Positions 8,670-63,441 of a stretch of 64,000 nt of DNA are shown piece after piece; positions within the stretch are counted from its first letter, which is position 1; each line of letters opens with the position of its first letter. A model generated the notes under the pieces. That model was not told the DNA's origin and did not search any database. It saw only the letters and a program-made list of their open reading frames with translations. The position numbers and the translations under genes were made by a program. This stretch comes from a virus (Duplodnaviria > Caudoviricetes): the IMG/VR virus record IMGVR_UViG_3300025502_001322, positions 1 through 64,000 of that record; one strand, written 5' to 3'.

Positions 8670-8671
8670 CT

Positions 8672-8700: not shown

Positions 8701-8718
8701 AACATACAAGGAGAGCAC

Positions 8719-40449: not shown

Positions 40450-40459
40450 CAAATAATTC

Positions 40460-40488
40460 TTGCTTTCTACCTCAATATCAACTATAAT
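40460..40488 (+). promoter_or_regulatory. sigma70-type promoter
   Basis: TTGCTT-17 nt-TATAAT; AAGGAG SD. Confidence 0.65.
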
Positions 40489-40509
40489 ATCCCTAAAGGA
40501 GAACATTCA

Positions 40510-41241
40510 ATGAAAGATAACTTATTAGACCTAGTATCGCATACATTTGCACTTGGTAATGTAAACAAACTTAAAGTGCAAGGTACTGCAACAGAAACAA
40601 AAATTAATTCTATAGCAGAAGACAAGACTGTTATTATCGAGGGTACATTTAAAAAGCCTATTAAAGAGCTCGAAGGCACGTTTGGTATGCCTAACCTGAG
40701 CAAACTTAATATTATTTTAGGCATTCCAGAGTACAAAGACAACCCTAACATTTCAATTAGTACACAAGACAAAAACGGTGAGACTGTTAAAACAGGTATT
40801 AGTTTTGAGAATGCCGAAGGTGACTTTAAAAACGATTACAGATTTATGAGTAAAGAAGTTGTTGAGGAACAACTTAAAACAATTAAGTTTAGGGGTGTTA
40901 AATGGAATGTAGACTTCAGTCCTACCGACGCCAGTATCCAGCGTTTTAAATTTCAGACACAGGCTAATGCAGAACACCCAAGTTTTATTGCTAAGTCAGA
41001 AGGCAACGACTTAAAATTCTTCTTTGGTGAAGCAACAAGTCACGCAGGTAACTTTGTGTTTGCCGCAGATATTGAAGGCAAAGTTACCAAGCCTTGGTCA
41101 TGGCCCGTAGCACCTATTACAGCAATACTGGGTCTTATTGGTGACAAAACTATCAAATTTAGTGACGAAGGAGCGGCTATGCTTACAGTAGATAGCGGTA
41201 TTGCAGTATATAACTACATTATTCCAGCACTTACCAAGTGA
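40510..41241 (+). CDS. Sliding clamp (gp45/PCNA-like processivity factor)
   Basis: 243 aa, two-domain alpha/beta pattern, C-terminal Y.Y.IP; RFC loader and PolB nearby. Confidence 0.6.
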   Translation: MKDNLLDLVSHTFALGNVNKLKVQGTATETKINSIAEDKTVIIEGTFKKPIKELEGTFGMPNLSKLNIILGIPEYKDNPNISISTQDKNGETVKTGISFENAEGDFKNDYRFMSKEVVEEQLKTIKFRGVKWNVDFSPTDASIQRFKFQTQANAEHPSFIAKSEGNDLKFFFGEATSHAGNFVFAADIEGKVTKPWSWPVAPITAILGLIGDKTIKFSDEGAAMLTVDSGIAVYNYIIPALTK

Positions 41242-41269
41242 TAGAACTTAACAACAGTTCTCCTGCGTA

Positions 41270-42022
41270 GTGACGTACTTCATTGACAAGATAAGAGTTG
41301 AACATTCTTCTAACTCAGGAACAAGCATACTACATGGATACATTCCTAGTGTAGGACTCACTTATTATAGTGGACAAGGACACACAGTAGGACAATGTTA
41401 CAAGTGTCCTGACCAACCGGTAGTGTATATTAATACACCAAAGTGTGCGAGTAGTTTTATGAAGACTCATTTACTTAATCTAGGGTGGGAAAATAAATTT
41501 TTACAACTAGGAGACTGGGTTGCGGATAATCCCTCTGATATGATGCCAGTCAGCGACGTAGAAAAGTTCATTGTTGTTATGAGAGATCCTTATGATAGAT
41601 GGTTAAGTGGTATAGCAGAATACTTTGGTGAATATTTTAACGATCACGAAGGCATATTTGAATACTTGAATAATCCGTTAACTCTAAAGTTATTAGCACA
41701 AAGAGTATCGTTTGATGATCATACTGAAAGCCAATTATTCTTTTTACAGAATGTACCGTTAGAAAAATGTGTGTTCTTAAGACAGGAACAAGGGCTTAAC
41801 TTTAAAATTTCAGAGTACTTCAGAACTGTTCTAAATATACCTAACAATATATCAAGTGAAAAGCCAGTGCATGTCTCAACAGGCGGTTCCTGGAACGGCA
41901 GAGTAAAACAACATTTAAATAGACTTTTAAGAGAAAACAACGTAGAATACATGAATGTCTTAAAGACTATGGAACAAGATTACGAATTTATGGATAACAT
42001 AGTGCATTTTTATGGCGATTGA
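41270..42022 (+). CDS. Sulfotransferase family 2-like protein
   Basis: YINTPKCASS (PAPS loop), RDPYDRWLSG, DDHT.SQ. Confidence 0.72.
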   Translation: MTYFIDKIRVEHSSNSGTSILHGYIPSVGLTYYSGQGHTVGQCYKCPDQPVVYINTPKCASSFMKTHLLNLGWENKFLQLGDWVADNPSDMMPVSDVEKFIVVMRDPYDRWLSGIAEYFGEYFNDHEGIFEYLNNPLTLKLLAQRVSFDDHTESQLFFLQNVPLEKCVFLRQEQGLNFKISEYFRTVLNIPNNISSEKPVHVSTGGSWNGRVKQHLNRLLRENNVEYMNVLKTMEQDYEFMDNIVHFYGD

Positions 42023-43484
42023 ACAAGACAACTTGTCTGCTAAACAAAAAGACTACGCAGTCTACTTGCCTGCGCTTAGTAGTTTTTATACGGCATTTGT
42101 AGGTAAACAACAAGAGACAGGCAACTATGTAGATCCTGCTAGAGTGCCCAGTAGTTTCCAAAATGGTGTGGAAAGTCTAAACTTCCTTAATGAAAAAGAA
42201 GGAATGTTTACCTACAATCAAGCATTATATAGTGCAGGACATGCAGTGTTAGATGTTGCTAAAGACCATCCTAAAGACTGGATGGTAACACGTCGTGACA
42301 GGAAAAAGAATCTCATCGTAGGTGATTCAGGTGGCTTTCAGATTGCAAAGGGCACCTGGGAAGGCAACTGGCCCGACACTACAGATAAAGCTACAAGTAA
42401 AAAACGTAAACAGGTGTTGACCTGGTTAGACTCAGTTTGTGATTATGGAATGACACTTGATATTCCTACTTGGACTGTGCATGACAAAAAAGCAAGTGCA
42501 AAGACAAATATTAAAACATACCAACAGGCTGTCGACATAACACAATTTAACAACGAGTACTTTATTAAGAACAGAACAGGTGCCTGTAAATTCTTAAATG
42601 TGCTTCAAGGCAGTAACCACACTGATGCTGACCATTGGTATAGTTTAATGAAGAAGTACTGTGACCCAAAACAGTATCCCAATGACCACTTTAACGGTTG
42701 GGGCATGGGAGGTCAGAATATGTGTGATCTGCATCTTATTCTAAAACGTCTTGTAACGCTACACTATGATGGTTTACTACTACCCGGCACACATGACTGG
42801 ATGCATATCTTAGGTACAAGTAGACTAGAATGGGCATGTGTCCTAACAGATACACAACGTGCGGTTAGAGAAAATTACAACCCACAATTTACTCTAAGTT
42901 TTGATTGTGCGAGTCCCTTCTTAGCAACAGCCAACGGACAAGTGTACACTGTAAACGAACATCCAGACCGGGGTAAATGGGTATACAGAATGCGTCCCTG
43001 TGTTGATGACAAGAAGTATCATAACGATACACGACCATTTGTGTCAGCAGTGTTACAGGATGGGTTATTTGATAACTTTACTGACAGCATAGTAACCCAA
43101 GGCATACAGTTGAAAGATGTCTGCATTTATGCCAACGGTGACCTCAATAAAATTGGCAAAGAAGGCAAGACCTCTTGGGATAGTTTTAGTTACGCCATAC
43201 TGATGGCACACAATGTCTGGATGCACATTAAGGCAGTACAAGACTCAAATGTTCTGTATGACCAGGGCAAGATGCCAAGAATGCTAGTAAATGACCTGGG
43301 TGCTGGCACTGCTATTAGGGACATAATTAACGAAGTGTTTGCACAGCCCACTAAAGAAAAGAGCCTTGCAATTATTGAAAAACATAGCACACTCTGGATG
43401 CAAGTAGTTGGAAACAGAGGATTCTCAGGCAAGAGAGCTCTAAACGCTAATACACAGTTTAGCAATTTGTTTGAAATGGCTTGA
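42012..43484 (+). CDS. TGT-fold guanine transglycosylase, DpdA-like
   Basis: GDSGGFQ, MTLD, NVLQG, GWGMGG, HILG, SFDCASP map onto TGT motifs; no C-terminal Zn site. Confidence 0.8.
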   Translation: MAIEQDNLSAKQKDYAVYLPALSSFYTAFVGKQQETGNYVDPARVPSSFQNGVESLNFLNEKEGMFTYNQALYSAGHAVLDVAKDHPKDWMVTRRDRKKNLIVGDSGGFQIAKGTWEGNWPDTTDKATSKKRKQVLTWLDSVCDYGMTLDIPTWTVHDKKASAKTNIKTYQQAVDITQFNNEYFIKNRTGACKFLNVLQGSNHTDADHWYSLMKKYCDPKQYPNDHFNGWGMGGQNMCDLHLILKRLVTLHYDGLLLPGTHDWMHILGTSRLEWACVLTDTQRAVRENYNPQFTLSFDCASPFLATANGQVYTVNEHPDRGKWVYRMRPCVDDKKYHNDTRPFVSAVLQDGLFDNFTDSIVTQGIQLKDVCIYANGDLNKIGKEGKTSWDSFSYAILMAHNVWMHIKAVQDSNVLYDQGKMPRMLVNDLGAGTAIRDIINEVFAQPTKEKSLAIIEKHSTLWMQVVGNRGFSGKRALNANTQFSNLFEMA

Positions 43485-43509
43485 CAGCCTAGTCGAGTAG
43501 CCTTATAAT
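43481..43509 (+). promoter_or_regulatory. Consensus sigma70 promoter
   Basis: TTGACA-17 nt-TATAAT. Confidence 0.8.
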
Positions 43510-45974: not shown

Positions 45975-46271
45975 ATGAAAACAATTATCTTAGCAACACT
46001 ACTTACAATATCAACTCCTACATGGGCTAACCAAGCATGTATGGGGTACTCTAGAATGGCAGAAGACATCGCAACAATGCTAGTAGAGGGCATTAACCCC
46101 GACAACATTAACTTTGTCGACCCAGGTAACCCAGTGGACAAAGGTGCACAAAACTCAGGCAATGGGTTGGTTAGGCGCATACAACAAATGTTGGCTAATC
46201 AGAGTACACCAAGAGAGATCAGGGACATTATATTACAAGATTGTTTAAACCCAAACGATGTCAAATCTTAG
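45975..46271 (+). CDS. Secreted hypothetical protein
   Basis: Signal peptide; two Cys. Confidence 0.55.
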   Translation: MKTIILATLLTISTPTWANQACMGYSRMAEDIATMLVEGINPDNINFVDPGNPVDKGAQNSGNGLVRRIQQMLANQSTPREIRDIILQDCLNPNDVKS

Positions 46272-46280
46272 GAGAATAAA

Positions 46281-46454
46281 ATGTTATCTAATAGACTTGA
46301 AGCACTCTATGAAAAACACCAAGAGCTAGAACAAGAACTTTGCTTTCTAGTTAACGGACATCCGCATGTTCAGGAACAGAGAGTAAAAACAATTAAGAAA
46401 CAGAAGTTGCTGATTAAGGACGAACTACAACATCTTAAAACTGTGGATAAATGA
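46281..46454 (+). CDS. DUF465/YdcH-like helical hairpin protein, 57 aa (not in track)
   Basis: GGAG SD; RLEALYEKHQELE...IKKQKLLIKDEL; ATGA overlap with next gene. Confidence 0.65.
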   Translation: MLSNRLEALYEKHQELEQELCFLVNGHPHVQEQRVKTIKKQKLLIKDELQHLKTVDK

Positions 46455-47332
46455 AAAGCATTGTAGTCGGGTTAGGTATAGGCAATCTATATAAGTCTGT
46501 CTTAGAACACATTGGTAATGAAGTAGTAACTGTTGACACTGACAGTGCCAAGAATCCTACTTATACCGACTTATCAAAATCTCTGACATCTCAAGAGCTA
46601 AGTTTAAATGGCAAGTTTGTTACGGGACACGTATGCACACCAAACTTTACACATTATAGTGTAGCAGATACAATAGCACCCTACTGTGATATTGTATTTG
46701 TAGAGAAGCCAGGTGTTAGAACTGCTGACGAATGGCAACAGTTAGTAGATAGGCATCCTGACACAAAGTTTATACTTGTTAAAAATAACATGTGGCGTAG
46801 TAATATCAAAGAACTACGTGAACATGCGCAACAAGCAGAATCTGTTGAGCTTAATTGGATAAACAAAGATAGAGTACCTAGTCCGGGTACTTGGTTTACC
46901 ACGATGGACCTCGCATTTGGTGGTGTTAGTAGAGACCTTATGCCACATCTACTAAGTTTATATATGGCATTTGATGACGATTGGCGTCAAGCAGAACCAA
47001 CACAAGCACTAGCACACAGACGTTATGAGTTGTCAGAATTATCCAACACTGATTACGGAGAAGTAAATAATAATGGCGTTTACAATGTAGACGACTTATG
47101 TAAATTTTCTATTAACAAATATAAACTAACCGCCGATTGGCGTGACACACAATCTGATAAACGTAATATAATTTTCTCTAACCCGGACTACACGTTTAAA
47201 CTAGGATTATGCCCAGAACTAGCATACGAGAATATGATACGAGACTGTATCTATAATCGTAACACAGAAGGTTTCTGGCAAGATCAACTGGAAAAAGACT
47301 TGTGGATACACAAACAAATTCAAAACTTATAA
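46451..47332 (+). CDS. Gfo/Idh/MocA family oxidoreductase
   Basis: VVGLGIG, VCTPNFTH, VEKP, GGVSRDLMPH. Confidence 0.85.
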   Translation: MKSIVVGLGIGNLYKSVLEHIGNEVVTVDTDSAKNPTYTDLSKSLTSQELSLNGKFVTGHVCTPNFTHYSVADTIAPYCDIVFVEKPGVRTADEWQQLVDRHPDTKFILVKNNMWRSNIKELREHAQQAESVELNWINKDRVPSPGTWFTTMDLAFGGVSRDLMPHLLSLYMAFDDDWRQAEPTQALAHRRYELSELSNTDYGEVNNNGVYNVDDLCKFSINKYKLTADWRDTQSDKRNIIFSNPDYTFKLGLCPELAYENMIRDCIYNRNTEGFWQDQLEKDLWIHKQIQNL

Positions 47333-48225
47333 TGGATGTCAAACTATTAGTTACAGACGGTAACGGTACATTTGCCGAAACGGTCTGGTCCAAGCCTGAA
47401 ATCACCGATACTGAGATAGAAGTTAAAGCCATTATGACTGGCGTGTGTCGTAGTGATATAGACATGATGACTGGTCAGTTTGGTCCGTTGCCGATACACA
47501 TGAGCGGGCACGAAGGCTTAGGGCAAGTTACTAAGATTGGTAAGCACGTTACAGACGTTAATGTTGGTGACATTGTCGCTACTCGTGGTGAACCTGCTTA
47601 TGCAGATTACTATAACGTAAAGCGCAACGAGTATGTGATTGTGCCAGAAGCAAGTCCGGACTACATATTAGAGCCCGTTGCATGCGGTATAAATGTTGTC
47701 GAACAGAACTTACAACAGATACAGTTACGCCAAGATGAGGGTTCAAGACTGCTTATCAAGGGCAGTGGCTTCCTAGCATATTGTGCATATACCACGTTAC
47801 AACAACGTAATGTAGACTTTGATATAGATGTTGTGGGCTCAAGTAACCAACATCTATGGGGCGACAAGTTACAGACTGCTCCTACTGGAGAGTACGATAT
47901 TATCATCGACCTTAAGGGTGACACTAAAACATTTACAGACCCCATATATAAAGAGAATGCGCTAATTATCGTAGGCTCCAACATGCAGGTTAATATGAAC
48001 TTAAACAACTTGTTATGGAAAGCAGTAACAGTAACATTCCCAAGTCCACGTAACCCCAACTTTATCAAATGTATGAAATTAGCAGAGGTATGGATATCAA
48101 AAGGTGTGTTAGAAGTTGACTCATTTTGGACAACCAGTTATAATAGACATACAGACTGGCAAAAAGCATTCGAAGATGGGGTCAACAGACCAGTAGGATA
48201 CAGCAGAGGATACATAGAATGGTAA
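47302..48225 (+). CDS. Zinc-dependent medium-chain dehydrogenase (no structural-Zn loop)
   Basis: GVCRSD, GHEGLG, VGDIV, EPVAC. Confidence 0.85.
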   Translation: MDTQTNSKLIMDVKLLVTDGNGTFAETVWSKPEITDTEIEVKAIMTGVCRSDIDMMTGQFGPLPIHMSGHEGLGQVTKIGKHVTDVNVGDIVATRGEPAYADYYNVKRNEYVIVPEASPDYILEPVACGINVVEQNLQQIQLRQDEGSRLLIKGSGFLAYCAYTTLQQRNVDFDIDVVGSSNQHLWGDKLQTAPTGEYDIIIDLKGDTKTFTDPIYKENALIIVGSNMQVNMNLNNLLWKAVTVTFPSPRNPNFIKCMKLAEVWISKGVLEVDSFWTTSYNRHTDWQKAFEDGVNRPVGYSRGYIEW

Positions 48226-48587
48226 AAGTTTTTTTACTTAGTGTTTTAGTTGTTTGTTGCAGTATCGCTAATGCACAAGAACTGCCAAATGCAGATCAGG
48301 AAACATTGGAAGATCCGGAAACATTGCATAAGCCTGTAGAGTGCTATTCTGCAGAGAGTATTGTTAAATTAACAGAAGAGAAGGGATTAATACTATTTTG
48401 GCAAGGTCCAAACTTAAAAGATAATTACCCAGATAACACAATAGTAGTAATGTTAGACCCCAACGCTAACGGCTGGGTGGTATTTGAAATGACTTTACAA
48501 GTCGCATGTATACTTGGCTACGGTCAAAGTTTTTGGTTGTTTGATCAACTGTATATGTTCTTAGACCCTTTACAGGAAACTGACTAA
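48219..48587 (+). CDS. Secreted hypothetical protein, paralog of 57..431
   Basis: Signal peptide; shared Cys/Trp pattern. Confidence 0.65.
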   Translation: MVKVFLLSVLVVCCSIANAQELPNADQETLEDPETLHKPVECYSAESIVKLTEEKGLILFWQGPNLKDNYPDNTIVVMLDPNANGWVVFEMTLQVACILGYGQSFWLFDQLYMFLDPLQETD

Positions 48588-49021
48588 TGGAAGAACAACG
48601 AGCAATGGCAGTGGCAGAGAAACTACTCAAGCAAGCAAATAATGCAAGCAAGATGATATGGGTAACTTTTCGTAAGGAAGGTATTCATTGCTATCCTGGT
48701 GCAGACACAGATCCTAAACTAGCAACAGGTGACTGGGACGATGTTAGTTTTTTAGGTGTACCACACAGACACATATTTCACTTTAAAGTCTGGATAGAAA
48801 TATTCCATGACGATAGAGACATAGAATTTATACAGTTTAAGCGTTGGCTACAACGTTTATATGAAAATAGCGTATTAGAGTTAGACCACAAGTCATGTGA
48901 AATGATATCTAATGATCTATTCTTGCAAATTGCAACTCGTTATCCAAGACGTAACATCTGGATTGACGTTAGTGAAGATGGCGAAAACGGAAGTTTCATA
49001 AAGTACCACAAGGAGAATTAA
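48587..49021 (+). CDS. QueD-like T-fold protein with LxxxHRHxF motif (DpdL candidate)
   Basis: FLGVPHRHIFHF, DRDIEF, SCEM, VSEDGENG C-terminus. Confidence 0.65.
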   Translation: MEEQRAMAVAEKLLKQANNASKMIWVTFRKEGIHCYPGADTDPKLATGDWDDVSFLGVPHRHIFHFKVWIEIFHDDRDIEFIQFKRWLQRLYENSVLELDHKSCEMISNDLFLQIATRYPRRNIWIDVSEDGENGSFIKYHKEN

Positions 49022-49022
49022 G

Positions 49023-49235
49023 ATGGCTAAGCCAAAAACAGGCATGACGCCCAAAGTAACACGTATTTTTGAAGATTTAGAGGCATACGCAGATTACTGC
49101 AGGATGCACTATTGCAAGTTTGACGAAGCAGATATGTATCGCAGAGGTACTAATTGGGAACGTATGCAAAACAAACTACAACGTGGGAATAGAAACGACA
49201 ACGGCAACTACAACTATAAGCAGAGGCGTCGTTGA
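49023..49235 (+). CDS. Small basic hypothetical protein
   Basis: 70 aa, AGGAG SD. Confidence 0.6.
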   Translation: MAKPKTGMTPKVTRIFEDLEAYADYCRMHYCKFDEADMYRRGTNWERMQNKLQRGNRNDNGNYNYKQRRR

Positions 49236-50320
49236 TATATCTAGTAGACCTAGAAGGTTTGGATACACGTTATACTAAACAATGGAAACACCATGTGCCA
49301 GATCTCCTACGGAGAGAACTGACGGAGGAAGTCACAGTAATTAGTGGTGGTGATACTCCACAGGCAACAACACCAGGTGCGTTCTTAAACTTTGGTGGTA
49401 CCAATGTGTACAAGTCTAAACAACTAGAACAGATAGGTGAATTATTTTGTGCTGGTAAAGTTAAAGACGGTGACTACTTCCTTTATACCGATGCTTGGAA
49501 CCCTACTGTTATACAGTTAAAGTATATGGCAGAGTTGTTGGGTGTCAACATAAAAATAGGTGGTATGTGGCATGCTGGTAGTTATGATCCAGAAGACTTT
49601 TTAGGAAGACTTATTGGTGACAAGCCTTGGGTCAGACATGCTGAAAAAAGTATGTACGAAGTGTTTGATCATAACTTCTTTGCTAGTGTGTTTCATATCA
49701 AAATGTTTCACAACACACTCAATTATCCTGAGCGTATTATATGGGCTGATGGAATGTTTAGTGATGGCAAGATAACTCGCACTGGTTGGCCCATGGAGTA
49801 TATGGTAGAAACTCTTGCGCCATACAGTAATTTAGAAAAACGAGACATAATACTTTTCCCACATCGTATTGCTCCAGAAAAACAACCAGAGATATTTAAA
49901 GACCTGCAAAAGTCCCTGCCACAATACAAGTTTGTGATGTGTCAAGAACAGCAACTTAGCAAAGACGAGTACCATACTTTATTAGGGTCGGCTAAAATTG
50001 TGTTTAGTGCTAACTTGCAAGAAACACTTGGTATAAGTTGGTATGAAGGCGCATTAGTTAATGCTGTTCCCATGGTGCCTGGCAGGCTAAGTTACAGTGA
50101 AATGGCTGTAGACAAATTTAAGTATCCAAGCGAATGGACTACTAACTGGGACAGTTACCAGAAACACAAGACTGATCTATGTGATGCCATTACTATAGTT
50201 ATGGAAAACCACAGTGACTATTTGCCAGCACTGGAACAACAATTAACGAAACTTAAAGACGAGTACTTTGGATGCAGTAAATTAATTTCAACTATTAGAG
50301 ACAGGAGCAAGCATGCGTAA
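49232..50320 (+). CDS. GT-B fold glycosyltransferase
   Basis: FPHRIAPEKQP and LQETLGISWYEG donor-binding motifs. Confidence 0.78.
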   Translation: MIYLVDLEGLDTRYTKQWKHHVPDLLRRELTEEVTVISGGDTPQATTPGAFLNFGGTNVYKSKQLEQIGELFCAGKVKDGDYFLYTDAWNPTVIQLKYMAELLGVNIKIGGMWHAGSYDPEDFLGRLIGDKPWVRHAEKSMYEVFDHNFFASVFHIKMFHNTLNYPERIIWADGMFSDGKITRTGWPMEYMVETLAPYSNLEKRDIILFPHRIAPEKQPEIFKDLQKSLPQYKFVMCQEQQLSKDEYHTLLGSAKIVFSANLQETLGISWYEGALVNAVPMVPGRLSYSEMAVDKFKYPSEWTTNWDSYQKHKTDLCDAITIVMENHSDYLPALEQQLTKLKDEYFGCSKLISTIRDRSKHA

Positions 50321-50879
50321 GAAATATTATTCATGGCGGGACGTTGAAACCATATGTACAGAGCTAGTTATAGACATGTATAAATCTAACTACAAGCCGG
50401 ACATCGTAGTTGGTCTCACACGTGGTGGTAATATCCCTGCTACTATTATTAGCAATATGTTAGATGTTCAATGCGAGTCACTAAAAATTAAACTACGAGA
50501 CAACAAGCCTGGTGAGGAGAACGAAACTAATTGTCAACTTGCACGACAAGCATTTGGGTATGTGTCGGAAACTGAACAAGTAGTATTGAAAACACGATGG
50601 GATATCTCACAACGAAAAAACATTCTTATTGTGGACGACATTAATGATTCTGGTGCTACATTTAATTACCTTAAACATCAGTGGCAACAATGTTGTTACC
50701 CTGAGGAATCCAGTTGGGGGACTGTCTGGGAACACAATGTTAGGTTTGCAGTACTAACGGAAAACTTGTCTAGTAATTTCCAACACGTCAGCTATCACGG
50801 CGACGAAGTAAATAAAATGGAAGAAGATATTTGGTTAGTTTACCCTTGGGAAAACGTAGGTCGATATGGAAACGTATGA
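50313..50879 (+). CDS. Type I purine phosphoribosyltransferase (Gpt/Hpt-like)
   Basis: VGLTRGG, ILIVDDINDSGAT PRPP loop, WLVYPWE. Confidence 0.88.
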   Translation: MRKKYYSWRDVETICTELVIDMYKSNYKPDIVVGLTRGGNIPATIISNMLDVQCESLKIKLRDNKPGEENETNCQLARQAFGYVSETEQVVLKTRWDISQRKNILIVDDINDSGATFNYLKHQWQQCCYPEESSWGTVWEHNVRFAVLTENLSSNFQHVSYHGDEVNKMEEDIWLVYPWENVGRYGNV

Positions 50880-51486
50880 TGAGGACGTCAGTCCCTGGCA
50901 ACCTATACGTGATTTCGAACAGGAACTAGCCGCATACACTGGCGCACCTTACGCAGTAACAACTGATAGATGCACCCACGCAATAGAAATAGCACTTAGA
51001 TTACGACCACCCACAGAACCTGTTAGATTTACAGCATTTACCTATGTGAGTGTTGTGATGACCATGCACAAACTCGACATAGCTTACGAGTTGATAGACG
51101 AGCAATGGCGTGGCAAATATCAATTTCATAACACTAATATATGGGACTGTGCTAGGTTCTTAGAGCGTGACATGTACGAACCAGGACAAACCCAATGTTT
51201 AAGTTTTGGTAGGACCAAACCACTACCATTGGGCTTTGGTGGTGCTATATTAACTGACGACAAAGAGCTATACGAACGTGCAAGCCGCATGCGTTACGAT
51301 GGCAGAGACTTGTTTAGTCACCAAAAGTGGTCAGAACAAACAGACTGGGAGCCAGGCTTCCATTACTATATGACTCCAGAACAGTGCGAAGTAGCAGGCT
51401 TCCGTCTGGTCAACGAACTCTTAACAATTCAAGAAGATCACCATTACAACTACCCAGACTGTAGACAACTTAATATTAAACATTGA
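50866..51486 (+). CDS. DegT/DnrJ/EryC1/StrS-like PLP aminotransferase, N-terminal domain only
   Basis: FEQELAAY, CTHAI, DCA, SFGRTK (PLP lysine), GGAILTDD; only 206 aa. Confidence 0.75.
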   Translation: METYDEDVSPWQPIRDFEQELAAYTGAPYAVTTDRCTHAIEIALRLRPPTEPVRFTAFTYVSVVMTMHKLDIAYELIDEQWRGKYQFHNTNIWDCARFLERDMYEPGQTQCLSFGRTKPLPLGFGGAILTDDKELYERASRMRYDGRDLFSHQKWSEQTDWEPGFHYYMTPEQCEVAGFRLVNELLTIQEDHHYNYPDCRQLNIKH

Positions 51487-51511
51487 CTTGATTATCTAAA
51501 TATCGTATAAT
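51483..51511 (+). promoter_or_regulatory. sigma70-type promoter for folE
   Basis: TTGACT-17 nt-TATAAT. Confidence 0.75.
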
Positions 51512-51554
51512 ACAACATTAAAGAGACTCCCCCTCTTGTTAACTCGGAGATACA

Positions 51555-52235
51555 ATGAAACTATCAACAGCAGAAGTAATTAGACAACGTCTTAAAGTCG
51601 CAGGTGTTAGATTCCATTCTAACGACAATATCAGTGAATATATTAAAGAAGGTGAACTAGACAGTCTTCAAACAGAAGTACAAGATGCAATGCAGAATGT
51701 ATTAGATGCACTCGTTATTGACACAGACAATGACCACAACACACAGGAAACTGCTAAACGTGTTGCTAAGATGTTTGTACATGAAACTTTCAATGGTAGG
51801 TATGTGCCTCGTCCAAGAATAACAAGTTTTCCCAACATGGGTTACAAGAGTTTGTATGTAAGCGGTCCCATTAGCGTTAGGTCAACTTGCGCACATCACT
51901 TTCAGAATATTGTAGGTAAGTGTTGGATTGGTGTACTGCCAGAAGATGAAGTTATCGGACTAAGCAAGTTTAATCGTCTTGTGCATCACATTGCAGAGCG
52001 TCCTCAAATACAGGAAGAGATGACCACACAGATTGCAGAAGAATTAATTAAGTATGCAAAGACTCCTAACATTGCTGTTATAGTTAAAGCAGAACATCAC
52101 TGTATGACTCATAGAGGTGTTAAAGAACATGAGTCAGATATGACTACTGCTATTATGCGTGGTGCGTTTGATGATCATGCTCCTCTTAAGAAAGAGTTTT
52201 ACGATATCGTTATGAACATGAAGGGTCATAGATAA
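51555..52235 (+). CDS. folE: GTP cyclohydrolase I
   Basis: ET..RVAKM, STCAHH, GLSK, RPQIQE, HHCM..RG. Confidence 0.95.
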   Translation: MKLSTAEVIRQRLKVAGVRFHSNDNISEYIKEGELDSLQTEVQDAMQNVLDALVIDTDNDHNTQETAKRVAKMFVHETFNGRYVPRPRITSFPNMGYKSLYVSGPISVRSTCAHHFQNIVGKCWIGVLPEDEVIGLSKFNRLVHHIAERPQIQEEMTTQIAEELIKYAKTPNIAVIVKAEHHCMTHRGVKEHESDMTTAIMRGAFDDHAPLKKEFYDIVMNMKGHR

Positions 52236-52250
52236 CCTCTATTACTGTAG

Positions 52251-53036
52251 ATGTATAAACGAGCAATCATAACACTAAGTCATATTGAACGTGTTACAGA
52301 CACCATAGACGTAGAGTTTAAATTAAACAACCACAGTTATGCACAGAAGTGGGCAGAGTGTATAAAAACTATTGAAGGTCCCCCCAACGACTTTGGCTTC
52401 CCTAGACGATTAGAAGAAGATCCTGACATATATAAAGCGAGGATTAGCACACATATAGAATCCATTCCTGAATTAGACTTTAGTGTGATTAATCAAGACT
52501 CAGTCAATGCAATACACAGGTACATAGAAGACAATCACAAACAAGCAGACAAACTATTAACACTACACAACGACATACACTATTTGGAGAGTTTATGGGA
52601 AGGGCCAAGAGAAGTAGTGTTTAAAAAGGTACAGTGGGTTCCGCCAGGTAAGAGAATTAAAATGGAGCCAGATGATTACAAGTGTTATACAACTGAACCT
52701 TGTGAGAATTACCTAGAAGCAGACTTTAGTCATGTAGGCAGAACACCACACAATACTTGGTACTACAAAGATGACACAAGTTTGTCAACAAGTTGTCGTA
52801 TACAGGAAGACGTTACTAGTGGTTGTATGTGGTGGTTTACAGACAACAGTCATATATACGAAAACAGACACGGGTTTGTGGAATGGTTTTATCAACACCA
52901 AGCATACTTCCTTCGTAAATATAATATAAATTGGCCACATGATCCACGTGTGTGTTATGGTAGAGTCATACTTGCAACTGCTAAAGAGTTGCCAGGCCCA
53001 GAGTGGGACTTTGTTCAACAATTAAGAGTAGAATGA
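52251..53036 (+). CDS. Hypothetical protein
   Basis: 261-aa ORF between folE and queE. Confidence 0.55.
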   Translation: MYKRAIITLSHIERVTDTIDVEFKLNNHSYAQKWAECIKTIEGPPNDFGFPRRLEEDPDIYKARISTHIESIPELDFSVINQDSVNAIHRYIEDNHKQADKLLTLHNDIHYLESLWEGPREVVFKKVQWVPPGKRIKMEPDDYKCYTTEPCENYLEADFSHVGRTPHNTWYYKDDTSLSTSCRIQEDVTSGCMWWFTDNSHIYENRHGFVEWFYQHQAYFLRKYNINWPHDPRVCYGRVILATAKELPGPEWDFVQQLRVE

Positions 53037-54373
53037 AATATCTAATACGTTATAACCCTATAGCAGATTGTGATCCAGAATACCAAGAGCGTATCAAGGA
53101 CATTGCACAGTTTCATCAACAGTTGCCGTTCGATACTGACTTTCAGGTATTAGAAAGTTCTGATTTAGACCAAGCATTTGCAGAAGTATCGGCAGATTCT
53201 GAATGGGTCGTTGTTGTTAGTCTTGGGCACTGTAGTCAAGACAGAAACATGTACGACAAAGCCATTGCCGTTTGCAAAGAAAATAATGTAAAATTAATGT
53301 GCCACCTACTGGACTTTAAAGATCAGTACATACATTTCCATCCGCAGTTTTTTGTCATACACTACCCAAGTTGGATTAAGGCGGGGAGACCTCGCTTTGG
53401 CTACGATGGCGAGGAGCAACAGTTTACAGGACTCGATTATATTCCCAGTAAAGACACGTATCACGATGATTACACACCTGTTAGCCTTAGACCTGGGTTG
53501 CGACGGCGAACATTTCAAGTTCATGAAATGCAAACTGGTGCTTGGGTAATTAAAAACTTCTTAGACAAGGGGTTTAGTATTATTAACGTAACACAAAAAC
53601 TAAGAGATAATACGTTTCACTTATATCCAGACATAGAGTCCGACGAGTTTTATAATTTTTTAAAGACAGGTGAATATACTGGGTCACAGTCAAGTCAGGA
53701 GTGGTATGTTGGGCTTATTAAACATCTAGCACGTAACGTAAAACACCAGTTCTATCCTCTTAACACAGAACCTGTTGGTAATGACAAGATCGATTTTAGT
53801 ATAAACAACTTCATATGTGTAGCAAGCGGCTTAAAACCTTGGTTACTACCAATGTATTATGCTAACGAAACAGACCCTTTGAGTATTAATTTTTGCGATT
53901 TTTCAGATGCCGCGGTGCAATTTCAACAGCATTTAAGCACTTGGTCGGGCGAAGTTGGAACCTTTAATGCAACTGTACAGCAATTTCTTAAAGAACACCC
54001 TGAGTTTGAGAGTTGTGATCCTCCAGGCGCATACGACACCGAGCTTGTTCGACAGTTAACTAATATTAACATAGCCCCTAAGGTTTTTCAGGCTGTCTGG
54101 AGTCAGATACCCAAGGATCAGCCATGCAGTTTATTAAATTTGTATACCGAAGAAGGACAGGATCAGATAATTAACATAGTTGCCAACAATGATACCACAT
54201 ACGTGTGGTTAAGCAATGCATTCTATATGGAGTATGCATTAGTTACTGTTGGTAAAAAGAAGGTATACGAATATAGACAACGTCTTATAGATGGGCTAAC
54301 CGCAACTGGTAAGCGTTTTGTGTTAGACTTGATGGATCCTTGGCAACAAGGACCGGTAACCTTCAATGACTAA
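53003..54373 (+). CDS. Hypothetical protein
   Basis: 456-aa ORF; WLSNAF motif. Confidence 0.55.
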   Translation: MGLCSTIKSRMKYLIRYNPIADCDPEYQERIKDIAQFHQQLPFDTDFQVLESSDLDQAFAEVSADSEWVVVVSLGHCSQDRNMYDKAIAVCKENNVKLMCHLLDFKDQYIHFHPQFFVIHYPSWIKAGRPRFGYDGEEQQFTGLDYIPSKDTYHDDYTPVSLRPGLRRRTFQVHEMQTGAWVIKNFLDKGFSIINVTQKLRDNTFHLYPDIESDEFYNFLKTGEYTGSQSSQEWYVGLIKHLARNVKHQFYPLNTEPVGNDKIDFSINNFICVASGLKPWLLPMYYANETDPLSINFCDFSDAAVQFQQHLSTWSGEVGTFNATVQQFLKEHPEFESCDPPGAYDTELVRQLTNINIAPKVFQAVWSQIPKDQPCSLLNLYTEEGQDQIINIVANNDTTYVWLSNAFYMEYALVTVGKKKVYEYRQRLIDGLTATGKRFVLDLMDPWQQGPVTFND

Positions 54374-55048
54374 TTGTCGAAAACGTTCAGCAACTCTATA
54401 ATCGTCTGGGTAACCATGTATAATCATATGATATCTATCATGTTCACTGTCATTAAAAACAGCATGTTCAAAGTTGTTGGCAAAAAGAAATATACTACCC
54501 ATTTGATTGAATGGTACAGTACCTTGGTCTTTAACTACCAATTTGCAGCCGTCAGGATTCCATAAACTTATGTTTACTGCATTTAATCCGTATGTGTTGC
54601 CGTCAGTATGTGGTAAAATATATCCGCCCGGCTTAACCTTCATAAAACGAACACGGTGATAAACATCATATGGAAAGTGTTGTGCTAACCACAGTTTCGT
54701 ATAAGGAGCATCTATGTCTGTCCAGTCATATGGTACATTTCTATTTGACAAATCCTTGTATTCCGTATATAATTCATAATGATCCGTATAACTTTGACTA
54801 ATACCATGAACACAAACACTGGACCAACCGCTACTGTCGTTATCCCTATGTTCGTGATAAGTAGCACGTTCGGCTTCTGCATGCAACACCGGCCATTGTG
54901 CATGAATATAAAGAGGAATATAGGGCAGGTTACTTTCTGTCACAATCCATTCGTAGTCAGCATCTCTAGGAAGTTGACTAACGTCAGGACTGCAATCAGA
55001 ATTACTAGCAATAAATGTTTCGAGTTTGTCCACAAAATTATTTACCAT
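54323..55048 (-). CDS. Aspartyl/asparaginyl beta-hydroxylase-like 2OG-Fe(II) oxygenase
   Basis: RVRFM...PGG.I.PHTD, EHAV.N....R.HMI. Confidence 0.75.
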   Translation of the reverse strand: MVNNFVDKLETFIASNSDCSPDVSQLPRDADYEWIVTESNLPYIPLYIHAQWPVLHAEAERATYHEHRDNDSSGWSSVCVHGISQSYTDHYELYTEYKDLSNRNVPYDWTDIDAPYTKLWLAQHFPYDVYHRVRFMKVKPGGYILPHTDGNTYGLNAVNISLWNPDGCKLVVKDQGTVPFNQMGSIFLFANNFEHAVFNDSEHDRYHMIIHGYPDDYRVAERFRQLVIEGYRSLLPRIHQV

Positions 55049-55082
55049 AATACAAGTAGTCTAGATATAAGCAGAGGTTAAA

Positions 55083-55958
55083 ATGAAATTTAAAGTAAGT
55101 GAAATATTTTACAGTCTACAGGGAGAGGGGAGATTTGTAGGAGTACCCAGTGTATTCTTAAGACTGTTTGGGTGTAACTTCGAATGTCCAGGTTTCGGTT
55201 TGCCTAAAGGTAAGAAGACTGAAGAAGTCGACAACATAATTAAACTGGTAGAACAAGATCCCGACAAGTACAAACGACTAGAAGACCTTCCACTTGTTAC
55301 AACAGGCTGTGATAGTTATGCAAGTTGGCATCCAAAGTTTAAAAAGTATTCGCCAACTTATGACATAGACACACTTGTTGGTAAATTAACCGACTTACTC
55401 CCTAATAACACATGGCGACAAGATAATGGATCAGACATACACCTAGTTGTTACTGGTGGAGAACCATTATTAGGCTGGCAACGTATATACTCGCACTTAC
55501 TAGAACATGACAAAATGAGTAACTTGCAGAATATAACGTTTGAGACAAACGGCACACAAAAGTTACATGATGACTTTAAGGCATTCTTTCACACATGGAA
55601 GAATGATTATCATAACTACCACAACTTAACATTTAGTGTTAGTCCTAAACTAAGTGCTAGTGGTGAAGCGTGGGACGATGCTATCATGCCAGAAGTAGTT
55701 GCTGAGTATAACTGGATAGGCAACACGTATTTGAAGTTTGTAGTAGAGAATGATGAACACATGGCTGAAGTAGATGAAGCTGTTAATGCATATCGTAAAG
55801 CAGGAGTAAACGGTAACGTTTATATTATGCCTGTTGGTGGGGTAGCAGAAGCATATAATCAAAATAACAAACGGGTAGCCGAATATGCACTAAGTAAAGG
55901 TTACAGATACAGTCCCAGATTGCACGTAGATATCTGGGGCAACAGTTGGAGTACTTAA
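55083..55958 (+). CDS. queE: 7-carboxy-7-deazaguanine synthase (radical SAM)
   Basis: EIFYSLQGEG, FLRLFGCNFEC...GCDS, TGGEP, ETNGT, VSPK, RLH..IWG. Confidence 0.88.
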   Translation: MKFKVSEIFYSLQGEGRFVGVPSVFLRLFGCNFECPGFGLPKGKKTEEVDNIIKLVEQDPDKYKRLEDLPLVTTGCDSYASWHPKFKKYSPTYDIDTLVGKLTDLLPNNTWRQDNGSDIHLVVTGGEPLLGWQRIYSHLLEHDKMSNLQNITFETNGTQKLHDDFKAFFHTWKNDYHNYHNLTFSVSPKLSASGEAWDDAIMPEVVAEYNWIGNTYLKFVVENDEHMAEVDEAVNAYRKAGVNGNVYIMPVGGVAEAYNQNNKRVAEYALSKGYRYSPRLHVDIWGNSWST

Positions 55959-56332
55959 TGATTGATAAAATTAAAAACTTTTTTAAGAAAAACGAAGAGC
56001 CTGCACCTAGGCAACAACGCAAGTCTAAAAAGTCTGACAAAGACATAGCAACCGAAAAGAAAGAACCTTGGGTCAGCGTATTACAAGTTGAGCTTGATCC
56101 TGATAATATAGGTAACGGTAGTTTTGAACTAGACTGGAACGATTTCTTTGTTGCTAAACTTGTTAGGTCGGGCTACCCTGGCAAAACAGATCAAGACATT
56201 GTTGATAACTGGTTTCAAGATGTATGCAGGCATATTGTACTAGAGACACATCAACAGTATGATGCTAATGTTAGCCGTGCTGACAGAGTTAATAAAAAAG
56301 ACTTAGGTGACGGTAGGTCAGAATATAATTAA
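55946..56332 (+). CDS. Hypothetical phage protein
   Basis: 128 aa. Confidence 0.6.
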   Translation: MEYLMIDKIKNFFKKNEEPAPRQQRKSKKSDKDIATEKKEPWVSVLQVELDPDNIGNGSFELDWNDFFVAKLVRSGYPGKTDQDIVDNWFQDVCRHIVLETHQQYDANVSRADRVNKKDLGDGRSEYN

Positions 56333-56525: not shown

Positions 56526-57268
56526 TACTATACACAAACGGTTGCAGTCACGTTGCAGGTGCAGAAGCACTTAACACATATTGTTTTGCAGAAGATGATT
56601 CACAATACTTCTATCTAAAACGTAAACCACATCCAGCTAACTTAGCAGTGAGTTTTAGTGCTATTTTAGCCAAACTACTACAAGCACGTTTATATTGTGA
56701 TGCTGAAAGTGCCGCCAGTAACGATCGAATTGTTAGAACTACTCGAGACTTTATTAAAGGACAATATAAAGAAAACGTAAAAGAAGATGTGTTTGTACTA
56801 ATTGGTTGGACTACGTGGGAACGTGAGGAATGGGAACACGAAGGCGAATACTATCAGGTTAATAGTAGTGGGTTAGATGCTCTTCCTGAACCTTTACAAC
56901 TAAAGTATAAGCATTGGATAGTGGGAAAGGCAAGTAACTGGCAAGCACATCAGCAAAAATGGCACAGACAAGTATGGGATCTACATTGCGAACTACAGGA
57001 ACAAAATATCAAACACTTATTTTTTAACAGTCATATCGCCTTCAGTCTGATACAAGAACAAGATCAAAAAGACTGGGGCGATAGCTATGTAGACCCTTAC
57101 ACTGAATCACAATCATATTTTAACCTAATGAACACAAAAGGATTCAGTGTTCGACCTAGTGTTGCCGCTGATATGGGCGGTGGTCACTACATGGCTGACG
57201 GTCACCAAACCTGGGCACATCACTTGTTGCCGCACTTGACAAAAGCACTGAGTGGCCCTATAATATAG
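56522..57268 (+). CDS. SGNH/GDSL-like hydrolase
   Basis: LYTNGCSH block I, ASNDRI, GWT, C-terminal GHY...GH. Confidence 0.55.
   Translation: MILYTNGCSHVAGAEALNTYCFAEDDSQYFYLKRKPHPANLAVSFSAILAKLLQARLYCDAESAASNDRIVRTTRDFIKGQYKENVKEDVFVLIGWTTWEREEWEHEGEYYQVNSSGLDALPEPLQLKYKHWIVGKASNWQAHQQKWHRQVWDLHCELQEQNIKHLFFNSHIAFSLIQEQDQKDWGDSYVDPYTESQSYFNLMNTKGFSVRPSVAADMGGGHYMADGHQTWAHHLLPHLTKALSGPII
57236..57264 (+). promoter_or_regulatory. Consensus sigma70 promoter, leaderless geometry
   Basis: TTGACA-17 nt-TATAAT; ATG 7 nt downstream, no SD. Confidence 0.8.
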
Positions 57269-57271
57269 TAT

Positions 57272-58261
57272 ATGAGATACTTAATAGTCGACTTAGCAAA
57301 CACATTCTTTAGAGCCCGCCACATTGCACATCGTGGGTCAGATCAATGGACTAAACTGGGATTTGCAGTACACCTTACATTAGGTAGTGTTGCTAAAGCC
57401 TGGCGAGACCAAGCCGCAGGACACGTAGTGTTTTGCCTAGAAGGCAGATCCTGGCGTAAAGACTTTTACGAACCCTACAAGAAAAACAGGAAAGTGGCAC
57501 GTGATGCACTAACAGAAGCAGAGGCAGAAGAAGATCAACTGTTCTGGGATACATTTGACGATATCAAAACATTCCTAACAGAGAAGTCGAACTGCACTGT
57601 TATGCGACATCCTGAACTGGAAGCAGATGACTTAATTGCAGGTTGGGTACAAGCACACCCTAACGATCATCATACTATTGTGTCTAGTGACACAGACTTT
57701 TATCAGCTGTTAGCTAAGAATGTTAAACAGTATAATGGTATTACTGATGAGTTGCATACACTCGAGGGTGTGTTTAACAAAAAAAGCGAACCTGTACTGG
57801 ACAAGAAAACTAAAGAACCTAAAGAAGTTAATCCACAGTGGATGTTGTTTGAGAAGTGTATGCGTGGTGACACCAGTGATAATGTGTTTTCAGCATATCC
57901 TGGTGTGCGTAAGAAAGGCACTAAGAACAAGATTGGGTTGTTAGAAGCATTTGCAGATAAGGGCAAGAAGGGGTTCAACTGGAACAACATGATGTTACAA
58001 CGTTGGTCAGATCATAATGGTGTTGAGCATCGAGTGCTAGACGACTATCAGCGTAACGTAACACTTGTCGACTTAACTGCACAACCAGACGACATTAAAC
58101 GAAAGATTGCTGAAACAATAGCAGAAGCCAGTAGTCCCAAAACTACTAGCATGGTGGGTGCTAAATTTCTTAAGTTCTGTGGCAAGTACGAGCTAACTAA
58201 ACTGTCAGACGATGCACAAAGGTATGCTGATCTACTAGGCTCTCCCTATCCGGCTTCTTAA
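57272..58261 (+). CDS. rnh: T4 RNase H-like 5'-3' exonuclease (FEN/PIN fold)
   Basis: LIVD, SWRKDFY..YK.NR, LEADD, VSSDTDF.QL, GDTSDN. Confidence 0.9.
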   Translation: MRYLIVDLANTFFRARHIAHRGSDQWTKLGFAVHLTLGSVAKAWRDQAAGHVVFCLEGRSWRKDFYEPYKKNRKVARDALTEAEAEEDQLFWDTFDDIKTFLTEKSNCTVMRHPELEADDLIAGWVQAHPNDHHTIVSSDTDFYQLLAKNVKQYNGITDELHTLEGVFNKKSEPVLDKKTKEPKEVNPQWMLFEKCMRGDTSDNVFSAYPGVRKKGTKNKIGLLEAFADKGKKGFNWNNMMLQRWSDHNGVEHRVLDDYQRNVTLVDLTAQPDDIKRKIAETIAEASSPKTTSMVGAKFLKFCGKYELTKLSDDAQRYADLLGSPYPAS

Positions 58262-62217: not shown

Positions 62218-62218
<1 letters not shown>

Positions 62219-63441
62219 TGGACTTAGCATATAGTTTAGACACATTCTACTTCCTGGTATGCGGAGCCCTGGTCATGTTCATGGCGGCAGGCTTTACAAT
62301 GCTAGAAGCAGGTATGGTTCGTAGTAAAAACGTAGCAGAAATTATCACCAAGAACTTTGCACTGTATGGTGTTGCATGTTTGATGTATCTATTATGTGGA
62401 TACGGAATCATGTATGGTTCAGGAGAAGGCTGGGTACCTGGGTTCGGTACACTGATCGGCGCCGACAATACTGTAGCAAGTGAAGAGGCTTACTACAGTG
62501 TTCTGAGTGACTTCTTCTTCCAAGTGGTATTTGTTGCAACTGCAATGAGTATCGTAAGTGGTGCTGTAGCAGAGCGCATCAAGTTATGGAGTTTTCTATT
62601 ATTTGCTGTGGTGATGACAGGCTTTATCTATCCTATCCAAGGATTTTGGAAATGGGGAGGTGGTGCATTAGATCAACTTAACTTTTTGGACTTTGCTGGC
62701 TCAGGTGTTGTACACCTAGCAGGAGCAAGTGCCGCACTAGCAGGTGTTATACTGTTGGGCGCACGTAAAGGCAAGTACGGACCAGACGGTAAACCTAGAG
62801 CTATTCAGGCCAGTAACTTGACACTGGTAGGACTAGGCACATGGGTGTTGTGGTTAGGTTGGTTTGGTTTCAATGGCGGAAGTCAATTGCAAATCACTGG
62901 TTTACTGAATGCCAATGCAGTAGCACAAATTTTCGTCAACACAAACATGGCGGCAGTTGGTGGCCTACTAGCGGCAATGATAGCAAGTAAACTGATCACA
63001 AAGAAGACAGACTTAACAATTACACTTAATGGCGCACTGGCAGGTTTAGTTGCTGTAACAGCAGAACCACTCACAGGATCTGCACTTGCAAGTACCTTTA
63101 TTGGTGCAGTAGGTGGCGTACTGTGTTATGCCAGTATCATAACACTGGATCGTGTGTTTAAGATAGACGACCCAGTTGGTGCAATTTCAGTGCATGGCGT
63201 TGCAGGAATTTGGGGACTAATAGCAGTAGCGTTTACTAATCCTGATGCAGGGTTTGGTAACCAAATATTTGGTGCAGTTGTTATCTTTGCATTTGTATTC
63301 TCGACCAGTTTTGTTACTTGGTACATTATCAAGAAAGCAATCGGGTTAAGAGTGGATATTAAAGAAGAACATGAAGGCTCAGACATGGAAGAATGTGGAC
63401 TTGTAGCATATCCAGAATTTAGGATGTCAAACAAAATTTAA
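62218..63441 (+). CDS. amtB: Ammonium transporter
   Basis: FFQVVF, DFAGSGVVH, WFGFNGGS, IDDPVGAISVHG (twin His). Confidence 0.95.

Follow-up and report, generated by a model that had tools for sequence, protein, structure and literature searches.

A predicted purine phosphoribosyltransferase accompanies the 7-deazaguanine module of an uncultured giant T4-like phage

Published models of phage 7-deazaguanine DNA, to our knowledge, all have DpdA insert a free base once the DNA has been replicated, and none of them gives a phosphoribosyltransferase (PRT) a role. Here we analyse such a gene, PRT188, and the predicted modification module around it in the first 64 kb (hereafter the window) of the 289-kb viral record IMGVR_UViG_3300025502_001322. 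The record is about 80% complete by the CheckV estimate and, judged by its gene content, its source is a giant, uncultured T4-like phage.

Related systems have been described in cultured phages. In DNA of the phages phiST and immuto_2-6A the peak of deoxyguanosine (dG) is gone, and 302,000 dDG and 345,000 fdPreQ1, respectively, are present per 10^6 nucleotides (PMC10516641). The same study, Cui et al. 2023, gives the diagnostic motif of DpdL as LxxxHRHxF, which replaces the QueD motif CxxxHGH; dDG was not obtained there from DpdL and DpdA alone, and the word 'phosphoribosyl' occurs 0 times in the article (PMC10516641). The DNA of phage PA5oct resists cleavage at G-containing restriction sites, from which its authors infer a modified G (PMC12191111). 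Our literature searches for a role of a PRT in phage deazaguanine pathways found none described. The PRT enzyme family and the DpdL-type module are already known; undescribed in the literature searched is that the two recur as a pair, accompanied by a GT-B-like gene that is conserved and by sugar genes that vary.

PRT188 and its enzyme family

An earlier note, made from the sequence alone, had placed a type I PRT two genes before folE. The region 50313-52235 does contain three real, Pfam-supported open reading frames (ORFs) on the plus strand, in the order PRT188, DegT206 and FolE (Table 1). PRT188 matches PF00156 with an E-value of 3.6e-13 and 49.5 bits (gathering cut-off 26.3), and a GGAG ribosome-binding site lies 8-9 nt ahead of its ATG. 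At its 5' end the gene shares 8 nt with the end of the preceding gene, and at its 3' end it shares 14 nt with the start of DegT206.

Judged by sequence and predicted fold, PRT188 is a 6-oxopurine PRT of the Gpt/HGXPRT type. Its best phmmer matches in the PDB are the HGXPRT of Sulfolobus solfataricus (4z1o, 7e-8), 1vdm from Pyrococcus horikoshii, the S. solfataricus APRT 4trb, which evolved from a 6-oxopurine PRT, and the yeast HGPRT. The AlphaFold2 (AF2) model (pLDDT 77) retrieves archaeal APRT/HGXPRT structures at the top of the Foldseek search, followed by the XGPRTs of Escherichia coli, Yersinia and Helicobacter pylori; ranks 1-46 as listed consist of archaeal HGXPRT/APRT, XGPRT and HGPRT plus one uncharacterised putative PRT (5vog), with E-values from 1e-10 to 4e-7. 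The best NCBIfam model is the XPRT model PRK09177, whose score of 37.6 bits lies under the equivalog cut-off of 138. In terms of family models PRT188 is a relative of the xanthine/guanine PRTs and not an equivalog.

The residues expected of a working enzyme are in place. Within the motif that binds phosphoribosyl pyrophosphate (PRPP), ILIVDDINDSGAT, positions I104, L105, D108, D109, D112, G114 and T116 are invariant in 21 homologues, as is the pyrophosphate loop G34-x-T36-R37-G38-G39 (TRGG). The VDDIND[ST]G form of the PRPP motif is invariant together with the purine-stacking hood motif W-x-x-x-P-W-E, which reads WLVYPWE in PRT188 and aligns with WIIFPWD, WIVFPWE and WYAYPWE. The 21-sequence family sample has 60 invariant columns, a degree of sequence conservation far beyond chance. 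With these invariant motifs intact, PRT188 is predicted to be catalytically competent.

The family is large: the protein collection holds 2773 homologues at E<=0.001, and relatives of PRT188 are encoded in at least 578 IMG/VR contigs. The nearest cellular relatives, from marine Bacteroidota and Sphingomonadales, are 24-34% identical and share the same unusual VDDIND[ST]G motif. No FolE, QueE or DpdL gene lies within 8 kb of them, and their appearance is that of housekeeping genes for salvage. The phage clade carries two conserved insertions that are absent from the cellular homologues, one of about 20 aa that follows the L-R-D motif and another, of about 10 aa, that follows the PRPP helix. No longer or fused forms of the PRT were found, which is in itself weak evidence.

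The 7-deazaguanine module and its distribution

Pfam finds no TGT, QueC, QueD or QueE near PRT188, and the locus was at first read as a sugar or pterin pathway. This reading was overturned by a QueE-like PHROG match, a comparison with DpdL and the tRNA-guanine transglycosylase (TGT) fold of the protein p490, the same evidence that bears out the earlier note's claim that the PRT is embedded in a deazaguanine cluster. Because the QueE-like match, the DpdL-like motif and identity, and the TGT-fold p490 occur together, the locus is a 7-deazaguanine module of the DpdL type, without QueC and with a DpdA-like enzyme that is divergent. Across the whole 289-kb record Pfam detects neither TGT nor QueC. 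The QueE-like ORF has a weak match to PF04055 and is 45% identical to the QueE of Synechococcus phage BUCT-ZZ01. The DpdL-like protein p144 is 30% identical to phiST gp040 (DpdL; E 1e-16), and its FLGVPHRHIF fits LxxxHRHxF; further homologues of DpdL occur in PA5oct, ACP17, Phosso, BUDD and others. The QueD/PTPS-like gene at 273 kb reads C-N-V-I-H-G-Y at the position of QueD's CxxxHGH.

The assignment of p490 comes from its predicted structure. The AF2 model is a barrel (pLDDT 86, pTM 0.88), and all 50 of the 50 top-ranked Foldseek matches listed from the PDB are tRNA-guanine transglycosylases (E ~1e-7, best 8e-8). The motifs GDSGG(F)Q and FDCASP are invariant in 25 homologues; we take them to resemble the two catalytic-Asp motifs of TGT, a resemblance that serves as a lead and not as a test. 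Searches of p490 against Pfam, PHROGs, PADLOC, NCBIfam and the PDB (phmmer and profile) gave zero matches, with PF01702 undetected, and BLASTP found no similarity to the 259-aa DpdA3 of phiST. When the p490 profile was compared by hhalign with single DpdA sequences, the probabilities were 7% for ACP17, 0.3% for BUDD and 0.9% for immuto_2-6A, and the DSGG of p490 was aligned with the ACP17 protein. A homologue in a cultured phage, PA5oct EST35_0316, is 37% identical to p490. We call p490 DpdA-like: the model points to a TGT-superfamily fold, and kinship to known DpdA at the level of a sequence family was undetected. In Sinorhizobium phage Phosso (469 kb) a 178-aa 'glycosylase' (positions 8379-8912 of the compared locus, L088) occupies the place of p490. 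The Phosso block has no p490 homologue and its whole record no PF00156 gene, and DpdL, p362, FolE and QueE are retained. An HhH-GPD glycosylase lies between p128 and the exonuclease in 22 loci related to the window.

The synteny sample comprised 81 related viral loci, to which the window proteins were compared by tblastn; presence was counted in loci with enough flanking DNA to hold the gene in question. Across the 81 loci the genes follow the same order on one strand: polB, p243 (clamp-like), p490, DpdL, (p70), p362, PRT, FolE, QueE, p128 and exonuclease, with PRT and FolE sometimes swapped. QueE is present in every locus with room (57/57), FolE in 55 of 57, DpdL in 53 of 54 and the DpdA-like p490 in 44 of 45. 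The distribution of the PRT is linked to these genes; one unrelated to dpdA and folE, which would have counted against the earlier note, was not seen. Contigs with more than 35% identity that were placed in bins of metagenome-assembled genomes (MAGs) are phage-like and show the whole module wherever they are long enough to reveal the neighbours. One of them, a 335-kb contig (PBPT01000016.1, L110) binned as a Candidatus Neomarinimicrobiota MAG, carries clamp, p490, DpdL, p362, PRT, FolE, QueE and exonuclease, and is probably the genome of a jumbo phage that was mis-binned.

In a collection of 50,697 phage records, megablast with positions 46000-56000 of the window gave zero matches, and no isolate there has a close homologue of PRT188. 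A tblastn search of the same collection with three PRT queries did find distant gpt-like PRTs (24-33% identity), essentially only in deazaguanine phages. Synechococcus phage BUCT-ZZ01 has the order QueE-PRT-x-QueD-FolE, Flavobacterium phage immuto_2-6A has QueD-QueE-x-x-PRT-FolE-x-MazG-DpdA-DpdN-kinase-QueF, and PA5oct and its relatives have DpdL-x-x-PRT-QueE in a block syntenic with the window. In Cellulophaga phages phiST, phi13:1 and phi19:2 the PRT is outside the cluster, 19 kb away, next to the genes for RNase H and ribonucleotide reductase. The PRT homologues are EST35_0321 in PA5oct, gp064 in phiST and gp60 in immuto_2-6A. In four lineages the PRT directly adjoins FolE or QueE. A six-frame search for PF00156 found nothing in the DpdL-type phages ACP17, Phosso, RHph_I1_18, BUDD, Ahp1 and D479, and nothing in 9g, CAjan, VH7D, Rosebush and CP220. 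Because PF00156 is missing from ACP17, Phosso, 9g, CAjan and CP220, the PRT is a recurrent accessory of deazaguanine clusters and not a universal component or an obligatory step. A maximum-likelihood tree of 40 PRTs has a basal polytomy and long branches for the four isolate PRTs, and is compatible with one recruitment or with several.

Two simple rules were considered for the presence of the gene and rejected. That the PRT marks complete replacement of G agrees with phiST and immuto_2-6A; it is ruled out by CP220, which has no PF00156 gene and for which a 2019 study by Crippen et al. is said to have found complete replacement with dADG. That the PRT is specific to DpdL-type, QueC-less systems is ruled out by immuto_2-6A, whose pathway is of the preQ1 type.

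The gene that directly precedes PRT188, p362, probably encodes a GT-B glycosyltransferase, although on weaker evidence. Its Atlas feature matches (0.99-1.00) are viral clusters; one bears the name glycosyltransferase family 1, and another has PF00534 in 29% of its members. Among 25 homologues there are weak matches to PF00534 (6), PF04577 (3) and PF24785 (1). The p362 profile found nothing meaningful among PDB sequences. Homologues occur in PA5oct (42% identity), Phosso (48%, annotated as a glycosyltransferase), ACP17 (37%) and BUDD (25%), and in the related loci p362 is tied to DpdL as tightly as the DpdA-like gene is (51 of 54 loci with room). Because 7-deazaguanine has no obvious glycosyl acceptor, the final modified base may be a glycosylated derivative not yet described.

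The window's sugar-type genes recur in no more than one or two of the 81 loci and form a lineage-specific insert: Gfo/Idh/MocA-like, Zn-dehydrogenase-like, DegT206, an S-adenosylmethionine (SAM) methyltransferase, a sulfotransferase-like gene, and p261 and p456, the last two without any family. The set lies at 39193-42022, 46451-48225, 50866-51486 and 52251-54373 and is common to only one close relative, L002. DegT206, which separates PRT and FolE as part of this insert, has a homologue in only 1 of the 81 loci (L002, 83%); it is 206 aa long against a Pfam profile of 360 positions, and the SF-x-x-x-K motif is there. Other members of the clade have instead phosphomannomutase, cytidylyltransferase-like and epimerase/dehydratase genes upstream. 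One or two HIT-domain genes (PF01230, E 2.7e-8; e.g., L003:1307-1693) flank the PRT in 66 of 81 loci. In this 289-kb genome tblastn found no HIT gene, and DegT206 fills the slot.

Proposed guanine recycling and the alternatives to it

What this analysis establishes is the family to which the enzyme belongs, that its catalytic motifs are intact, which genes make up the module and that these genes occur together. The role of PRT188 that we favour slightly, at a little short of an even chance, is that of an active 6-oxopurine PRT of the Gpt/HGXPRT type that helps the deazaguanine module by recycling guanine towards GTP. FolE, QueD (encoded elsewhere), QueE and the DpdL-like protein would convert GTP to a 7-deazaguanine base, most likely 7-carboxy-7-deazaguanine (CDG) and then 7-deazaguanine. 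The deaza-base would be swapped into phage DNA by p490, with one free guanine released per site. PRT188 would then join guanine and other free 6-oxopurines to PRPP to yield GMP, which host kinases would carry to GTP, the substrate of FolE. A transglycosylase frees one guanine per exchanged site, and FolE uses one GTP per deaza-base. With such a loop the pathway would have no net cost in guanine. The loop would also clear away guanine, at once a product of the exchange and a competing substrate for the transglycosylase. In this scheme we infer what PRT188 acts on, which way the flux runs and that the enzyme is coupled to DpdA.

Free guanine is an expected by-product because nearly every locus with room encodes the TGT-fold DpdA-like protein. 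The PRT is found both with DG-type clusters (DpdL, no QueC) and with the preQ1-type cluster of immuto_2-6A (QueF, DpdN); what these clusters have in common is the use of GTP and the release of guanine, not one deaza-base. That sister DpdL modules do without the PRT fits a helper for which the host can substitute better than it fits a step that the pathway requires. Guanine recycling fits the enzyme family, the housekeeping look of the cellular relatives, the constant presence of the transglycosylase, the dispensability of the PRT and the chemically different deaza-bases.

Several points weigh against guanine recycling. At 13-21% identity to solved enzymes the specificity of PRT188 is unreadable from its sequence, and the two insertions that set the phage clade apart from cellular homologues may reflect a different substrate. 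Hosts normally own Gpt or Hpt, so the benefit would be quantitative at best. DpdA users with partial modification of G (9g, CAjan, VH7D and Rosebush), and also CP220, are without any PF00156 gene. Finally, the HIT genes that flank the PRT, and the MazG-like and kinase-like genes in the clusters of phiST and immuto_2-6A, hint at chemistry at the level of nucleotides. The earlier note had proposed that the PRT either salvages the excised guanine or converts the deaza-base to a nucleotide; the functional link to the deazaguanine system stands on the co-occurrence, and sequence cannot choose between these two roles.

The second of these roles is a serious, if less likely, alternative. PRT188 would act as TubE does and join PRPP to CDG or 7-deazaguanine. 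The product would be a 7-deaza-GMP derivative, from which 7-deaza-dGTP would be made and incorporated by the phage polymerase ahead of replication or in its course. DpdL may decarboxylate the nucleotide, kinases and ribonucleotide reductase would lead to 7-deaza-dGTP, and the DpdA-like enzyme would only fill in or finish the replacement. In favour of this route are the ready use of 7-deaza-dGTP by polymerases, the HIT-domain genes beside the PRT in most relatives and the MazG-like and kinase-like genes of the phiST and immuto_2-6A clusters. TubE is a 194-aa homologue of purine PRTs that uses PRPP and CDG (not 7-deazaguanine) in a QueC-less pathway with FolE, QueD and QueE, and decarboxylation follows at the nucleotide level (PMC6112128). 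The module here is also QueC-less and has a putative decarboxylase. Both cultured PRT carriers whose DNA has been measured, phiST and immuto_2-6A, have guanine wholly replaced, and the failure of Cui et al. to obtain dDG from DpdL and DpdA alone also favours activation of the deaza-base (PMC10516641). However, the conserved TGT-fold enzyme would compete for the same free base, and DpdL modules without a PRT exist. The same type of PRT in a preQ1/fdPreQ1 pathway would need another base specificity, and the conserved module here has no dedicated nucleoside monophosphate (NMP) kinase or dGTPase, the MazG gene being about 40 kb away. CP220, reportedly with complete dADG replacement, has no PF00156 gene. 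We regard it as rather unlikely that a TubE-like PRT provides a pre-replicative route through the nucleotide pool in a very large T4-like clade of uncultured phages from aquatic sources and in phages of the PA5oct, phiST and immuto_2-6A types, a route that would work beside DpdA or replace it and whose products the GT-B protein and sugar genes might turn into a glycosylated deazaguanine so far undescribed.

General purine salvage is an improbable explanation. The PRT would lift the supply of GMP and IMP for the massive synthesis of DNA that a 289-kb genome demands. It would have no particular tie to DpdA or to deazaguanine chemistry, and its position would be historical. Large phages often carry genes of nucleotide metabolism, the cellular homologues look like housekeeping genes, and the module lies among replication genes, between polB and RNase H. 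However, deazaguanine genes accompany all 81 close viral homologues sampled as well as the phage-like contigs from MAG bins that are long enough, PRTs of 24-33% identity recur in or near the deazaguanine clusters of four other phage lineages, and the search of the phage collection returned essentially only deazaguanine phages. Least probable, and in our view very unlikely, is that PRT188 makes or binds a nucleotide for another hypermodification step, for example one by p362 or the HIT proteins, or is a non-catalytic regulator that binds PRPP or (p)ppGpp. For this, p362 would be co-transcribed with the PRT if the promoter matches described below are real, and its conservation equals that of DpdL; the module has variable sugar-nucleotide genes around it; and the structural neighbours include 5vog, a protein of PRT fold to which ppGpp is bound. 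Against it, all catalytic motifs are invariant, PA5oct, Phosso, ACP17 and BUDD retain p362 and of these only PA5oct has a PRT, and we know of no precedent for such a hypermodification route.

That a PRT accompanies deazaguanine clusters in five or more phage lineages, and that relatives are encoded in at least 578 IMG/VR contigs, points to either a guanine-recycling loop or a second, nucleotide-level route into DNA. If guanine is recycled, heavy modification would become affordable and the exchange reaction would be pulled forward. Either route, if true, would alter how the pathway is reconstituted and how levels of modification are predicted from genomes. With PA5oct, phiST, immuto_2-6A and BUCT-ZZ01 as cultured carriers, the question is directly testable.

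Surrounding genes and comparison with described systems

FolE matches phrog_2197 (E 3e-52) and the NCBIfam FolE models (~1e-48, under their equivalog cut-offs), and its C-A-H-H and H-H-C zinc/catalytic motifs are seen. Perfect or 11/12 matches to the sigma70 consensus (TTGAC[AT]-17-TATAAT) occur at 43481-43509, 48116-48144, 51483-51511, 54745-54773 and 57236-57264. They closely precede gene starts, either in short gaps between genes or inside the 3' end of the preceding ORF. As putative promoters they would divide the locus into p122-DpdL-p70-p362-PRT-DegT206, FolE-p261-p456 and p100-QueE-p128.

The T4-type genes of the window include a gp9/10-like baseplate protein, clamp loader, PhoH, family B polymerase and RNase H-like exonuclease. 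The window also encodes a MazG-like pyrophosphohydrolase at 8719-9123, about 40 kb upstream of the deazaguanine module, a full-length ClpB-type disaggregase with DnaJ at 23227-25512, and an ammonium transporter at 62218-63441 (PF00909, E 5e-103).

Table 1. Genes and other features of the module and its flanks; positions are those of the window unless stated otherwise.
Feature	Position	Strand	Evidence and remarks
Family B DNA polymerase (polB), upstream anchor of the conserved module	36506-39169	+	PF00136, E 7.6e-34; synteny in 37 loci
p490, DpdA-like DNA/tRNA-guanine transglycosylase-fold protein, 490 aa	42012-43484	+	Predicted fold, motifs
p144, DpdL-like T-fold protein (proposed CDG decarboxylase family)	48587-49021	+	phrog_17812, E 6e-33
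p70, small conserved ORF	49023-49235	+	Family in 58/81 related loci, between DpdL and p362
p362, probable GT-B glycosyltransferase, 362 aa	49232-50320	+	Viral cluster feature matches, weak Pfam
PRT188, type I purine phosphoribosyltransferase of Gpt/HGXPRT type (by sequence and predicted fold), 188 aa	50313-50879	+	PF00156 Pribosyltran
DegT206, short DegT/DnrJ/EryC1-like pyridoxal phosphate (PLP) aminotransferase, 206 aa	50866-51486	+	PF01041 DegT_DnrJ_EryC1, E 3.4e-18
Putative sigma70-like promoter (TTGACT-17-TATAAT)	51483-51511	+	11/12 consensus match in the 68-nt gap before folE
FolE, GTP cyclohydrolase I, first step towards 6-carboxytetrahydropterin (CPH4)/CDG, 226 aa	51555-52235	+	PF01227 GTP_cyclohydroI, E 4.3e-45
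QueE-like radical-SAM 7-carboxy-7-deazaguanine synthase	55083-55958	+	phrog_2076 'QueE-like radical SAM', E 2.5e-55
5'-3' exonuclease/RNase H, downstream anchor of the module	57272-58261	+	PF02739, E 6.5e-18; synteny in 59 loci
QueD/PTPS-like gene	273129-273545 of the full record (G000)		~220 kb from the module; sole such gene in the genome

The solved 6-oxopurine PRTs (4z1o/5bqo, 1vdm, 1nul/1a97 and the yeast Hpt1 2jkz) share with PRT188 the type I fold and the size class. They also have the TRGG loop, an acidic PRPP motif that runs on into D-[ST]-G-x-T, and W-x-x-x-P-W-[DE] towards the C-terminus. PRT188 differs from them in its identity of only 13-21% and its two clade-specific insertions, and its gene lies in a DNA-modification operon and is not a housekeeping gene.

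TubE and ToyH, of the tubercidin and toyocamycin clusters, are like PRT188 by description, each a purine-PRT homologue of about 190 aa beside GTP cyclohydrolase I, QueD and QueE, and the tubercidin pathway, like the module here, is QueC-less with decarboxylation coming later (PMC6112128). The genome studied here offers the same setting, with FolE and QueE in the locus, the PTPS-like gene at 273 kb and no QueC in 289 kb. Unlike this module, the TubE/ToyH clusters of Streptomyces have no DpdA or TGT, and their decarboxylase is of the UbiD type and not a T-fold DpdL.

Among the phages, immuto_2-6A resembles most relatives of the window in having the PRT directly before FolE; it differs in its preQ1-type pathway with QueF and the formyltransferase DpdN, in the short form of its PRT and in a DpdA that is recognisable by annotation. 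phiST and DpdL-type phages such as ACP17 share with this genome FolE, QueE, QueD, DpdL (LxxxHRHxF) and the lack of QueC; their DpdA-family transglycosylase has a putative counterpart in p490, and phiST also has a gpt-like PRT, 29% identical to PRT188. In phiST, however, the PRT is distant from the cluster, the 259-aa DpdA3 is without similarity to p490, and there is no GT-B-like gene. The Pseudomonas jumbo phage PA5oct (Wroclawvirus) has a short-form PRT of 144 aa that aligns to PRT188 over only 45 residues (31% identity), and no FolE match was found in its block. Nevertheless, its gene order polB-clamp-p490 (37%)-p362 (42%)-DpdL (57%)-x-x-PRT-QueE-...-p128-RNase H is the closest cultured synteny to the window.

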